From IMG/VR virus record IMGVR_UViG_3300049218_000295, positions 64,001 through 128,000 of that record: a stretch of DNA of 64,000 bases; one strand, given 5' to 3'. The notes under the pieces are model-generated. The model saw nothing but the letters and a program-made list of their open reading frames with translations. It made no database searches and had not been told where the DNA came from. Shown here one piece after another: positions 1,609 to 60,848 of the stretch. The position numbers were made by a program, and so were the translations under genes. The DNA comes from a virus. The stretch's first letter is position 1. Each line of letters opens with the position of its first letter.

Positions 1609-1631
1609 CCAATATTACGTCTAAAGTAAAT

Positions 1632-1815
1632 CAGTTGGGTGACCGACTGTAGAGTCTAAGTTTGGGCTTCCAGCCGCACTTTTTCTCTCCGACTCTTTGG
1701 GGGACGTTCCGTCGCCGCAAGAGGTTACTGAGTTGGATTGCAGGCCACCAGGTATTAGGAAACGACTCTCAGCGTTTCGCATATCGGCCAGAAACCAAAA
1801 ATGCTAACTAGGAGA
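1632..1815 (+). ncRNA. putative structured leader or ncRNA upstream of the VWA gene
   Basis: Unusually long (214-nt) intergenic gap; stems CAGTTGG-GTGA-CCGACTG (GNRA loop), AGAGTC/GACTCT, GGCT/AGCC, GACG/CGTC and CTGAG/CTCAG. Confidence 0.45.
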
Positions 1816-1822
1816 TATTACC

Positions 1823-3499
1823 ATGAAACTGTCTACGAAATTTGATTACTCGTCTGTCGCTTACAACGTCGATAACACAGTGCATTTGCTTGTCCAGGCA
1901 ACGGCACCCAAACTCGATCTTGAAAAGAATCGCGTTCCGCTTAACCTTGTTGCCACACTCGACGTTTCACCATCTATGTATGGTGCGAAAATTGAGTATG
2001 CTCGCAAGTCTCTAATGAAACTCATCGACCATTTGTCACCTAACGACACCCTAGGTCTTGTGTCCTTTGACTCCGACGTCCGTACTTTGGCCCCTGTGAC
2101 CAAAATGGACCAGAAAGCCAAAGACAACTTGAAACAAATTGTCCAGAAAACTGGCATCGGTGGTGGCGGAACGAACCTATCAGGAGCAATGCTTGAAAGC
2201 ATTCGGCATGCAAACCAAATTGATGGGGCTTCTCGGGTGATTTTGTTCACTGATGGGCAACCAAATGTTGGTGTTCGGGAACCGGATAAACTGTCGGACC
2301 TTTTGCGCCAAAACATGCGCAAGAACCTGAGCCTCACCAGTTTCGGTTATGGAAATGACCATGATGCCAATTTGTTAACCGCTCTCGCGGAAATTGGCAA
2401 AGGAAACTATGCTTATCTACAAAATCCTGATGATGCTCTTACCGCATTTGCACGGGAACTTGGAGGATTGCTTTCCTGCTACGGACAAAATCTCAAATTT
2501 GCGATTACGCCAAAAGAGAAGACTGAAATCCTCGAAGTCATGAGCGACGTCGACGTGGAAGAGATTCCAGAAGGCGGAGTTCTGGTTTCGGTCGCGGACC
2601 TTTATAGTGAAGAAACCCGAAACATCGTCCTCAAAGTGAAACTTGATCGCCAGCCCAAATCCCACCCACGTGCGACTTCGGTTGCTGAGGTCGTTCTCAA
2701 GTATGATCGCATGCCTGAGGGCAAGCGCCAAACCGAGGATGTGCGGGCCAAAATACAGTTTGTAAAGGTGCAGGACGTACAGAAAAACGCGGACCAAGAG
2801 GTAGTGGACCAAGTTGGTCTTTGCCAACTTATGAAAGCACAGGAAGAAGCAACGGTTTATGCGGCTTCCGGAAATCTTTCTATGGCCAATTCCGTTCTAA
2901 ACAGCACTACTTTGGGTGTTCAAGGCGTCTTTGGAGCTGCGGGACCACAAGGTGCTTCTGGGCTAGTTGGAGCAGCTATGGCTACCACGCAAGGCTATTA
3001 TGCGGACCAGGCCTCCTTTACTAACTCAGTGCACCTGCGAGCAGCAAGTGCACATTCACATTCAACAGGTCGCGGTAGTCACACTTCCAATATGGGGCTC
3101 TACACGACAAATACCGCAATGGCAAGTATGGTGGATGCTTTCAAAGCAGATGATGACCAGCTCAACGACGCGCTGAACAGTCATAACCATTCGCTTGGGT
3201 CGGCAGGAGCGCCAGGTATCAGCAGTCACACCCACAACCCTGGTTTAGCCTCCGGTACAATTACGGGCGGGCAGGGCATGTCGGGTATTGGGGCTATCCA
3301 ACTTGACCAGAGCCGAATTGGCGGTGGTTTCAATAACTCTATTGGAAGCACCACAGGCACGCTGGTTTTGAACAATGGGATTGGTGGCGGTGGTATCGTT
3401 CATTGTGCAGATAGCACTGTGACAGTGCAGCCTGCTGAAACCAAGGTCACCGAAAGCAAAGCCAGCAAGACCAAATCCCGTTCTAAAAAGGAGTGGTAA
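1823..3499 (+). CDS. von Willebrand factor A domain protein (YfbK/CLCA-like) with Gly/Ser-rich low-complexity tail
   Basis: MIDAS DVSPS, GGTNL, LFTDG and FGYG motifs; SD GGAGA. Confidence 0.9.
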   Translation: MKLSTKFDYSSVAYNVDNTVHLLVQATAPKLDLEKNRVPLNLVATLDVSPSMYGAKIEYARKSLMKLIDHLSPNDTLGLVSFDSDVRTLAPVTKMDQKAKDNLKQIVQKTGIGGGGTNLSGAMLESIRHANQIDGASRVILFTDGQPNVGVREPDKLSDLLRQNMRKNLSLTSFGYGNDHDANLLTALAEIGKGNYAYLQNPDDALTAFARELGGLLSCYGQNLKFAITPKEKTEILEVMSDVDVEEIPEGGVLVSVADLYSEETRNIVLKVKLDRQPKSHPRATSVAEVVLKYDRMPEGKRQTEDVRAKIQFVKVQDVQKNADQEVVDQVGLCQLMKAQEEATVYAASGNLSMANSVLNSTTLGVQGVFGAAGPQGASGLVGAAMATTQGYYADQASFTNSVHLRAASAHSHSTGRGSHTSNMGLYTTNTAMASMVDAFKADDDQLNDALNSHNHSLGSAGAPGISSHTHNPGLASGTITGGQGMSGIGAIQLDQSRIGGGFNNSIGSTTGTLVLNNGIGGGGIVHCADSTVTVQPAETKVTESKASKTKSRSKKEW

Positions 3500-3500
3500 A

Positions 3501-3806
3501 ATGCACATCCAAAATTGCATTGTTCCGCTCCAAATAGGGTGCGGATGCGGTGGACTTGCATGCAGTTGCCAGAATAAGGTCCGCACCAAATGCGGGGCCT
3601 GTCCCAAGTGCGGTGCCCCAATCTATGAGGTCTCGCAGGTAACGTATCAGTGGTGGGGGTACAACCATTCGAAGCCGCAGATTGAATACAGTTGCGCTTG
3701 CAGGTTTGACTACTGCGCCCCGTGTATTCCAGCAATACCGCTTAAAATCACAGTCGAGTATCAACCACGCAAGCTATCAAAGAAAAGAAGTGGAAAAGAG
3801 TGGTGA
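3501..3806 (+). CDS. Cys-rich putative metal-binding protein
   Basis: 12 Cys (CGC, CSC, CGACPKC, CAC, CAPC); starts 1 nt after the VWA stop. Confidence 0.7.
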   Translation: MHIQNCIVPLQIGCGCGGLACSCQNKVRTKCGACPKCGAPIYEVSQVTYQWWGYNHSKPQIEYSCACRFDYCAPCIPAIPLKITVEYQPRKLSKKRSGKEW

Positions 3807-60372: not shown

Positions 60373-60796
60373 GGCAACAGCAAGACAGAAGCAGTGGCTG
60401 AGTGAGAACAGAGTTGTTGCCCTTTACACGCTGGACCCACTAGCTTTTCTGAGGCTGACCTGTAATTCATACTTTACCCTTGGTTTCACCGAGGTCGATT
60501 GGTTTCTTTGGTCTACTCGGCCTTTGAGCTTCTATCAGTCAACCAAGGTTCAGGACTCTATGGTTGAACATCCTTTCCTAGAGTTGGACAGAGAGGGTAG
60601 AGTGGTTAGACATGAGGGACGTCATCGAGCGGCAGCCATTAAGAAGGCCGGTGGAGATACTTATGAGATTGCTATTCTTTCTGAGTACGGGGTTCCAGAC
60701 CGGATTGTGGCCCAGTCCGATACGAGCATAGTTCACGAAGTAAACCATGAGGCCCTTAGGTATGAATTTGACGGTGGAGCCAGGAGCGAGAATTGA
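60359..60796 (+). CDS. ParB/Srx-like hypothetical protein
   Basis: PFLEL...HEGRHRAAA. Confidence 0.6.
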   Translation: MVALEATARQKQWLSENRVVALYTLDPLAFLRLTCNSYFTLGFTEVDWFLWSTRPLSFYQSTKVQDSMVEHPFLELDREGRVVRHEGRHRAAAIKKAGGDTYEIAILSEYGVPDRIVAQSDTSIVHEVNHEALRYEFDGGARSEN

Positions 60797-60848
60797 ACTC
60801 GCGTTTAGAGCTTACCATGCTCTCGTTCTGCCACTGAACTATCCCGGC
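60775..60848 (-). tRNA. tRNA-Thr(GGT)
   Basis: GCCGGGA...TCCTGGC-TCCA acceptor; D-arm GTTC/GAAC; anticodon arm AGAGC-ATGGTAA-GCTCT; T-loop TTCAATT. Confidence 0.9.

Follow-up and report, generated by a model that had tools for sequence, protein, structure and literature searches.

A conserved pseudoknotted RNA built from repeated internal-loop modules, probably an mRNA leader, precedes a VWA-domain gene in large uncultivated phages

We analysed a stretch of 64,000 nucleotides (nt) of viral DNA, hereafter the window, which comprises bases 64001-128000 of the 168.9-kb IMG/VR virus record IMGVR_UViG_3300049218_000295. As this record is estimated to be only about 66% complete, its source is taken to be a large, uncultivated phage. 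Near the start of the window a gap of 214 nt (1609-1822) lies between a DUF2786/DUF7168 gene (898-1608) and a pair of genes on the same strand:

1823-3499, plus strand: VWA-domain gene, 558 amino acids, recognised by Pfam (VWA), homologues, an AlphaFold model and fold matches
3501-3806, plus strand: gene for a Cys-rich protein, 101 amino acids, tightly coupled to the VWA gene and probably the second gene of the leader-controlled unit

An earlier note on this DNA had read the gap as a switchable cis-regulatory RNA, and the gap and all the motifs it listed are present where it placed them. A structured plus-strand RNA with nested stems, co-oriented ahead of the VWA gene, is borne out by covariation among related loci. 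We put a probability of roughly 60% on the reading that the gap is the 5′ leader of the VWA operon mRNA, folded into a three-module, pseudoknotted sensor domain that possibly gates the ribosome-binding site (RBS).

Two syntenic metagenomic contigs (L002 and L003) encode VWA proteins 69-80% identical to that of the window, and their gap aligns with the window's almost letter for letter; a further locus, L004, is identical over the gap. The leader core (1651-1789) is approximately 91% identical among the window, L002 and L003 (160 columns). The VWA gene is 68% identical as a whole, and its third codon positions are 43-51% identical (first 300 nt). A hidden small protein gene in the gap was excluded, because the conserved core carries 1-nt insertions or deletions in L003 and L002 and the open frames of the three relatives differ in frame and length. 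Substitutions in the gap are compensatory across helices, unlike the pattern of a coding gene. The GNRA-capped stem proposed at 1632-1649 (CAGTTGG/CCGACTG, GTGA loop), which we call P0, proved real in that its pairing is kept through compensatory changes in the three close relatives, being CAGUUGG/CCGACUG in the window and CUGUUGG/CCAACAG and CUGCUGG/CCAGCAG in the other two. P0 is restricted to the closest relatives of the window and is absent from the more distant leaders of the same form. DNA searches of GenBank phages at near and far range, with the gap and its flanks as query, gave no match; with the VWA protein, tblastn returned no more than two weak matches at 25-27% identity, and no cultivated relative was obtained. 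VWA homologues are present in a large protein collection, which gave contigs for comparison; a search of IMG/VR with the single VWA protein returned nothing, and a query made from an alignment of homologues succeeded.

The form of the RNA seen in the window, here called type A, comprises eight leaders (window, L002, L003, L005, L025, L027, L073 and L074). In the last five the VWA proteins are 40-50% identical to that of the window and the neighbouring genes are quite different; the same element is recognisable there within the 220-290 nt before the VWA start. The conserved domain of approximately 140 nt (1651-1789) consists of three hairpin modules, a clamp helix (P4) and a pseudoknot. Each module contains a small asymmetric internal loop in which UUG or a close variant stands opposite GC; of the two pairs that flank this loop, one is U-A or U-G and the other is G-C. 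In the window, the features of the leader up to the Shine-Dalgarno sequence (SD) and the start codon are:

1613-1618, plus strand: candidate -10 box TATTAC (TATTAT in L003), below the criteria of the promoter scan
1632-1649, plus strand: P0, a 5′ hairpin with a stem of 7 base pairs (bp) and a GUGA (GNRA) tetraloop; two stem positions change on both sides
1651-1688, plus strand: module 1, with outer helix AGAG (1651-1654)/CUCU (1685-1688) and inner helix AGU (1659-1661)/ACU (1678-1680)
1662-1664 and 1676-1677, plus strand: internal loop of module 1, UUG opposite GC, followed by hairpin GGC (1665-1667)/GCC (1673-1675)
1686-1690, plus strand: candidate anti-SD UCUCC, overlapping the 3′ strand of the module 1 outer helix at the junction with module 2
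1693-1723, plus strand: module 2, with helix CUCU (1693-1696)/AGAG (1720-1723) and a U-rich strand (1697-1699) opposite GCA (1717-1719)
1700-1706 and 1710-1716, plus strand: hairpin of module 2, 6 bp with one mismatch, loop UUC
1728-1732 and 1768-1772, plus strand: pseudoknot CUGAG/CUCAG, its 3′ strand in the loop of module 3
1743-1746 and 1786-1789, plus strand: P4, GGCC/GGCC, enclosing module 3
1751-1785, plus strand: module 3, with a 5-bp helix (1751-1755/1781-1785) and UAG (1756-1758) opposite GC (1779-1780)
1759-1764 and 1773-1778, plus strand: hairpin of module 3, GAAACG/CGUUUC, with an 8-nt loop that holds the pseudoknot strand
1790-1825, plus strand: A-rich single-stranded tail with a conserved AAC after P4, SD GGAGA (1811-1815) and the ATG at 1823

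Covariance model R1 was built from the three close sequences and a hand-assigned structure, and R3 was rebuilt from the hits of R1. With default filters R1 missed L025 and L074. R3, used with filters off, recovered all eight type-A leaders at E ≤ 5e-7, with nothing else in those loci, and found one copy in the window's own 169-kb record. Over the eight leaders 94.6% of structure cells were paired, compared to 81.3% with shuffled partners (none of 500 shuffles reached the observed value), and pairing dropped to 38-45% when the 3′ partners were slid by 1-3 columns as a control. Twenty-one of 33 pairs have changed on both sides. RNAalifold applied to the model-fitted type-A alignment gave the same helices, with 29 pairs of which 22 were compensated. 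In P4 and the module 3 hairpin 100% of cells were paired, and 12 of the 14 pairs of helices 6-8 have changed on both sides; P4 appears in relatives as GACC/GGUC, UACC/GGUA, AACC/GGUU and GAUC/GAUC, and the module 3 hairpin as GGAGG/CCUCC, GAACC/GGUUC and GGAAGA/UCUUCU. Module 1 is based on pair counts and RNAalifold, and L074 keeps both of its helices as AGAUG/CAUCU and GGUAC/GUACC. The inner hairpin of module 2 is entirely different in relatives (GGG-GAAA-CCC in L027, GGAGAC/GUCUC in L025). A GGAG stands 6-9 nt ahead of the start in all eight type-A loci. L027 additionally holds, at 2296-2360, a fourth module copy that is a tandem duplicate of module 1 (AAUUGGGC...GCCGC twice), and the loop module therefore appears gainable as a unit.

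The switch had been proposed to involve two copies of CGACTCT (1690-1696 and 1763-1769), either of which could pair with AGAGTC (1651-1656) or GAGTTG (1730-1735). All four segments are present, and conserved helices do exist in slightly shifted registers: module 1 is closed by AGAG(UC) and the CUCU that directly precedes CC, and GAG(U) pairs with (A)CUC within the pseudoknot. The exchange of two interchangeable copies fails, because the heptamer repeat is not conserved. It is lost even in the nearest relatives, where the equivalents are CCACTCT and CGAATCT (L003) or CAACTCT and CGATTCT (L002), and on this sequence comparison the two copies are a coincidence of the window genome. What stands of the switchable cis-regulatory RNA is thus a structured, probably cis-regulatory and only putatively switching RNA that is new to Rfam, while the CGACTCT detail was wrong.

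Using an alignment of 30 VWA homologues, we obtained 45 loci from IMG/VR, 41 of them distinct and most from contigs of 100-530 kb. Nearly all 41 loci carry a conserved non-coding element directly before the VWA start. Covariance model R2, built from 32 of the loci with this second form of the RNA (type B), gave 39 matches in the 41 distinct loci, almost all reaching the start codon, and no further match there. L068 and L071, whose VWA loci are AT-rich and diverge most from the rest (VWA starts at 1501 and 136, respectively), matched neither RNA model and may have a third, unrecognised leader form, or none. In the 39 type-B leaders 88.4% of cells were paired, against 73.8% with shuffled partners, and 24 of 27 pairs were compensated; double-change cells numbered 164 compared to 52.7 in shuffles (0 of 500), and slid controls gave at most 61.8%. 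Independently, RNAalifold on the raw MAFFT alignment recovered module 3, UUG opposite GC, and the U-A/U-G and G-C closing pairs. Covariation among the upstream regions of homologues, proposed at the outset as a check on the RNA, was thus found in both forms.

Type B likewise has three UUG/GC loops and a pseudoknot, formed between GUCC in the module 3 loop and an upstream GGAC. This pseudoknot covaries, being GGAC/GUCC in 31 leaders, GGGC/GCCC in three, GGAU/AUCC in L028 and GCAC/GUGC in L046. Modules 1 and 2 are turned round: their 5′ strand has GC, their 3′ strand has UUG, and it is at the opposite side of the loop that the hairpin is closed. The element ranges in size from 140 to 190 nt. The models did not cross-hit (R1 with default filters matched no type-B leader, R2 no type-A leader), and we infer from architecture and gene context, not from one model, that types A and B form one RNA family.

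Next we examined how closely the RNA is tied to the VWA gene. In either form it is present at 48 of the 50 VWA loci examined, and in each of five whole phage records (252-529 kb; two rated complete) R2 found exactly one copy, at the VWA gene. A scan of IMG/VR that started from the RNA, using a degenerate type-B pattern, gave 17 matches, of which 14 were true by the model; thirteen of these were VWA loci already collected, and the fourteenth ends approximately 15 bases before the end of its locus, which we took as the contig end. Since whole records hold one copy each and the RNA-first scan returned VWA loci, the element is single-copy and specific to the VWA gene. The other pattern searches added no copies: a first DNA pattern (TTACTGAGTT...CTCAGC...GCAT) had 19 matches in IMG/VR, all chance matches inside coding regions, a stricter type-A pattern had none in IMG/VR, and a metagenome pattern scan for type A gave six chance matches. 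Single UUG/GC hairpins occurred eight times genome-wide compared to 1.4 in mononucleotide shuffles; besides module 1 they are scattered and chance-like, and we claim no regulon. Among 185,579 prokaryote species genomes only one has a VWA homologue, on a 6.5-kb contig of a metagenome-assembled genome that also carries the type-B RNA and is probably phage DNA. At most loci the gap measures approximately 220-290 nt and the upstream gene is divergent or ended by a terminator, so that the VWA gene forms a unit of its own. Module 3 and the ATG are separated by a nearly constant distance, and in type B conservation continues through the SD to the ATG at fixed spacing.

A consensus scan found no intrinsic terminator (a G+C-rich hairpin with a U run) on either strand of the region 1400-2000, and hence no terminator-like site between the RNA and the gene; a terminator or attenuator reading of the gap was rejected on this basis. 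ARAGORN found no tRNA-like gene in the gap. A transcription start near 1625 is possible and would place the whole element at the 5′ end of a transcript that also carries the VWA gene. We infer this start rather than observe it, because TATTAC, the best candidate for its -10 box, failed the criteria of the promoter scan. No 8- or 9-mer enriched in the genome was found around 1585-1650. The more distant type-A loci have a TATAAT-like box 6-15 nt upstream of module 1. Almost every type-B leader has a box GGTGTA(T/G)A 10-20 nt before the first module (for example at about 1313-1325 in L054; columns 50-57 of alignment A4), and in many cases the box closely follows a terminator-like hairpin that belongs to the upstream gene. 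It may serve as a phage promoter element or may already be the beginning of the RNA; the window shows no equivalent box.

A location at the 5′ end would also suit a constitutive element that senses nothing, such as an mRNA-stabilising 5′ domain, an RNase III/E processing signal, a ribosome standby site or enhancer, or a put-like read-through RNA. The 5′ hairpin and the compact fold at the presumed 5′ end would guard against 5′-end-dependent decay, phage mRNAs often use hairpins with asymmetric internal loops as RNase III sites, and the signs of a switch are weak. However, the conservation of loops and pseudoknot across divergent phages exceeds what stabilisers or RNase III sites need, and a general signal for processing or antitermination should recur at several operons rather than stand as one copy per genome of 250-530 kb. 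We therefore regard a purely constitutive role as very improbable.

The encoded proteins give a second line of information. Pfam assigned only VWA families to the VWA protein (residues 41-203), with an intact metal ion-dependent adhesion site (MIDAS) whose residues D47, S49, S51, T117 and D144 are invariant in the 30-homologue alignment. The AlphaFold model (mean predicted local distance difference test score, pLDDT, of 79) begins with N-terminal strands and the vWA domain; a beta-sandwich (219-314) and a helical domain (325-453) follow, and residues 454-558 form a disordered tail that is basic and ends in Trp. Its best matches among solved folds were a Catenulispora VWA protein (4fx5), archaeal ArnB/ArnAB (with a Sec23/24-like core) and inter-alpha-inhibitor heavy chain 1 (ITIH1); no Ro60 chain was among the fold matches listed (ranks up to 50). 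PHROGs and PADLOC gave nothing informative for the flanking proteins. The VWA protein (...KSRSKKEW, window 3445-3499) and the Cys-rich protein (...KKRSGKEW, 3765-3806) are otherwise unrelated and have a C-terminal tag in common. The tag is also present in L002, L003, L005, L027, L073, L074, L028, L042, L043 and L058. Within the window genome, a KKRS/KSRS...EW tail is found in these two open reading frames (ORFs) only, five other basic, Trp-ending ORFs being short and unrelated. Family-wide, the VWA C-terminus reads ...[LVI]-x-K-[KSR]-[RK]-S-x-x-x-W-stop, with the terminal Trp invariant in 30 sequences, and downstream of the VWA gene there is a tagged Cys-rich ORF at every type-A locus but L025 (seven of eight) and at some type-B loci. 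The shared basic tag could be a sorting, docking, phosphorylation or RNA-binding signal.

With these proteins in view, the RNA might, instead of regulating translation, be a stable non-coding molecule that joins the VWA protein, or both tagged proteins, in a ribonucleoprotein (RNP) like that of Ro60 and Y RNA; it would then be made as a separate transcript or processed from the mRNA. In the Ro60 system (TROVE plus vWA, with Y RNAs or YrlA) the gene of a vWA protein similarly adjoins a dedicated structured RNA, sometimes amid tRNA genes, and the VWA locus, too, lies amid tRNA and tmRNA genes in several huge phages. An RNP would also fit the one-to-one link of RNA and gene across very divergent phages, the common conserved basic tag ending in Trp, and the threefold loop module, which is kept despite the inversion of modules 1 and 2 between the types as would suit a repeated binding site. 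Yet no terminator-like site divides RNA and gene: the leader is contiguous with SD and start codon, and in type B its conservation runs up to them at fixed spacing, unlike in the Ro60 system. The protein has the order vWA, beta-sandwich, short helical domain (approximately 130 residues), with no TROVE ring, Rfam gave no Y RNA or YrlA match, and no ACAGCAA handle was seen in the leaders inspected. Membership in the Ro60/Y RNA system was rejected on protein architecture and the RNA models, so that it remains only as a functional rival, and an autoregulatory leader would explain the linkage equally. We consider an RNP of this kind unlikely, though credible enough to be kept in view.

The earlier note had also pointed out that TCTCC (1686-1690) is complementary to the SD GGAGA (1811-1815). 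The complementarity recurs in the same place in all eight type-A leaders. In the window, L002, L027, L073 and L025 no other segment pairs better with the SD region than the one at the junction of modules 1 and 2, and in L003, L005 and L074 this segment comes within approximately 1 kcal/mol of the best partner. Its flanks extend the match variously, as GACUCCC/GGGAGUU in L025 and L073, UUGUACUCC with GGAGACAA in L027, and GCUUUGUU with AACGGAGC in L005. Cognate type-A duplexes reach -9.1 kcal/mol against -8.1 for non-cognate ones, a weak difference in which the cognate set was better in 96% of permutations, uncorrected for kinship. For type B the values are -9.2 kcal/mol (cognate) and -7.6 (swapped; 0 of 5000 permutations, again uncorrected for kinship). 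In approximately 40% of type-B leaders (e.g. L054, L052, L039 and L053) the 3′ strand of module 1 together with the linker forms 8-11 bp with the leader's own SD. As an expression platform, a competition between the module 1 closing helix and the SD is plausible, not demonstrated.

On the reading that we prefer, a leader of the VWA operon, the RNA probably controls translation of the VWA gene. Its folded domain would sense a factor supplied in trans. A protein that recognises the repeated internal loops, possibly the operon's own product, is favoured as effector because the loop module occurs threefold and survives inversion; a metabolite or metal ion is the alternative. The 3′ strand of the module 1 closing helix plus CC (UCUCC, 1686-1690) would pair instead with the SD GGAGA (1811-1815), so that the RBS would be free or not according to how the domain is folded or occupied.

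Several results weigh against this reading. The plus strand of the gap has a minimum free energy (MFE) of -60.0 kcal/mol; dinucleotide shuffles average -57.1 +/- 4.2 (z = -0.70), and 49 of 200 of them fold equally well. For the minus strand z = +0.69. A z-score no better than that of shuffled sequence had been named in advance as a ground for giving up the structured RNA. This is what was obtained, yet it is overridden by covariation: the single-sequence test is uninformative because the comparative evidence is strong, and the single-sequence MFE structure already includes the outer helix of module 1, the entire module 2 and the module 3 hairpin. The pair counts come from alignments fitted to the model's own structure. 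In type A the pseudoknot strands are invariant in seven of the eight leaders, with L074 using a shifted register (GAGUU/AACUC), and since the strands never vary they count neither for nor against pairing. A consensus scan of 1400-2000 found no sigma-70-type promoter, and the VWA model has no TROVE domain and no recognised RNA-binding fold. Most of the remaining objections concern the SD. Approximately 60% of type-B leaders are without the long pairing at that site. In fixed alignment columns the type-B anti-SD helix gave no signal (63.9% paired versus 64.8% shuffled). The 5-bp duplex of the window, at -7.8 kcal/mol, is no better than the non-cognate average of -8.4. The permutation tests leave the relatedness of the leaders uncontrolled, and a pyrimidine-rich helix strand matches a purine-rich SD through composition alone. 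It is the fixed-column null, the uncontrolled kinship, the composition and the unremarkable window duplex that keep SD competition at the level of the plausible.

If the effector were a small molecule or a metal ion, the three-module pseudoknotted fold would be the aptamer of a riboswitch, whose ligand would be tied to the function of the VWA operon. A divalent cation can be proposed as an example because the VWA protein has the metal-dependent MIDAS site, with invariant residues. This possibility overlaps with the preferred reading and differs from it in the nature of the effector only. It would agree with the location in a 5′ leader with a possible SD-sequestering alternative, with the high conservation of unpaired nucleotides and pseudoknot while the helices covary, and with putative expression platforms that vary by subgroup, as is usual for riboswitches. 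But three autonomous loop copies that tolerate inversion resemble binding or docking sites rather than one integrated pocket, the link is to one gene family and not to metabolic or transporter genes, and no ligand can be inferred. On balance a riboswitch for such a ligand appears doubtful.

To place the RNA among known families we searched Rfam. With Rfam 15 at the gathering threshold, the window yielded one tRNA, elsewhere; the segment 1560-1860 had no match among 4227 models at E up to 10; 20 related loci gave only tRNA, tRNA-Sec and tmRNA, all away from the element; and a type-B example at E up to 10 gave only a 13-bit chance snoRNA match over the start codon. The element is thus not a known Rfam class, as had been suspected, and a known ribozyme or riboswitch was rejected for lack of a match. 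In the literature we found no description of this RNA or of the leader of the VWA family. An IMG/VR-wide catalogue lists 10,006 unnamed candidate structured RNAs of viruses (PMC10690425); the text of the article makes no mention of VWA, and an earlier, unnamed computational prediction of type B is possible. As judged from sequence comparison, the RNA is a new uncatalogued family with two architectural forms and robust covariation, found only in uncultivated large or huge phages.

The nearest likeness is to orphan riboswitch candidates and structured leaders, from the Breaker-laboratory surveys in Rfam and from PMC10690425. In common with them, the VWA leader is a conserved, covarying and pseudoknotted domain in the 5′ leader of one gene family, has the RBS as a possible target and was found by sequence comparison only; it is unlike them in its three UUG/GC hairpin repeats, two of them inverted in the commoner form, and in being limited to large phages. 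It resembles a riboswitch-type or autoregulatory leader in the first defining features of these, a covarying sensor domain in the right position. The leader of T4 gene 32, in which a 5′ pseudoknot and an operator are bound by the gene's own product, is also a phage leader with a pseudoknot near its 5′ end, directly before one gene, and by this analogy autoregulation by the encoded protein would be a natural reading of the one-to-one linkage. The two leaders have no similarity in sequence or structure, and while gp32 binds single-stranded nucleic acid, no RNA-binding domain is recognised in the VWA protein.

By analogy only, the small bulged hairpins as autonomous units and a short basic peptide recall recognition of RNA by arginine-rich peptides (lambda N/boxB, HIV Tat/TAR and Rev/RRE). 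In the N-boxB complex a Trp stacks on the RNA loop. Unlike those peptides, the operon's tag is rich in Lys and Ser, not in Arg, and the loop sequences are unrelated. One might go further and picture the UUG/GC hairpins as docking sites for the tag L-S-K-K-R-S-x-x-x-W-stop, with the leader serving as an autoregulatory operator and at the same time as the RNA core of a new phage ribonucleoprotein, in a system of recognition between peptide tag and RNA module that would be specific to huge phages; we offer this as a speculation, and an improbable one.

Unassigned covarying leader RNAs have in the past been a source of new riboswitch classes and of new modes of RNA-protein recognition, and the present one is large and pseudoknotted, with an internal-loop module that is repeated and can be inverted. 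It marks a conserved two-gene operon, of a MIDAS-competent VWA protein and a tagged Cys-rich partner, and so offers a handle on the function of this operon and on regulation in huge phages. At this length the RNA could be studied biochemically and structurally by itself, with no need for the phage or its host.

The surroundings of the VWA gene were also inspected for other RNA genes. In the 64-kb window itself, a tRNA-Thr (GGT) gene on the minus strand (60775-60848) is the sole match of Rfam and ARAGORN. Elsewhere, tmRNA genes lie within approximately 1 kb of the VWA gene and its leader in L033 (33-378), L041 (37-386) and L045 (262-612), and tRNA genes surround the locus in L025, L049, L054, L056, L060 and L069, where the one at 3737-3821 of L060 scores as tRNA-Sec. 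This suggests that in several huge phages the VWA locus sits in a neighbourhood of translation and RNA genes. Neighbours at type-A loci (L005 1-290, the P0011 contig, L027 383-808 and L073 6430-7122) include RNA ligases, a CYTH-domain protein, a peptidyl-tRNA hydrolase (PTH2) and an RNase T-like exonuclease, and these RNA repair and turnover genes may hint at the pathway that the VWA operon serves.

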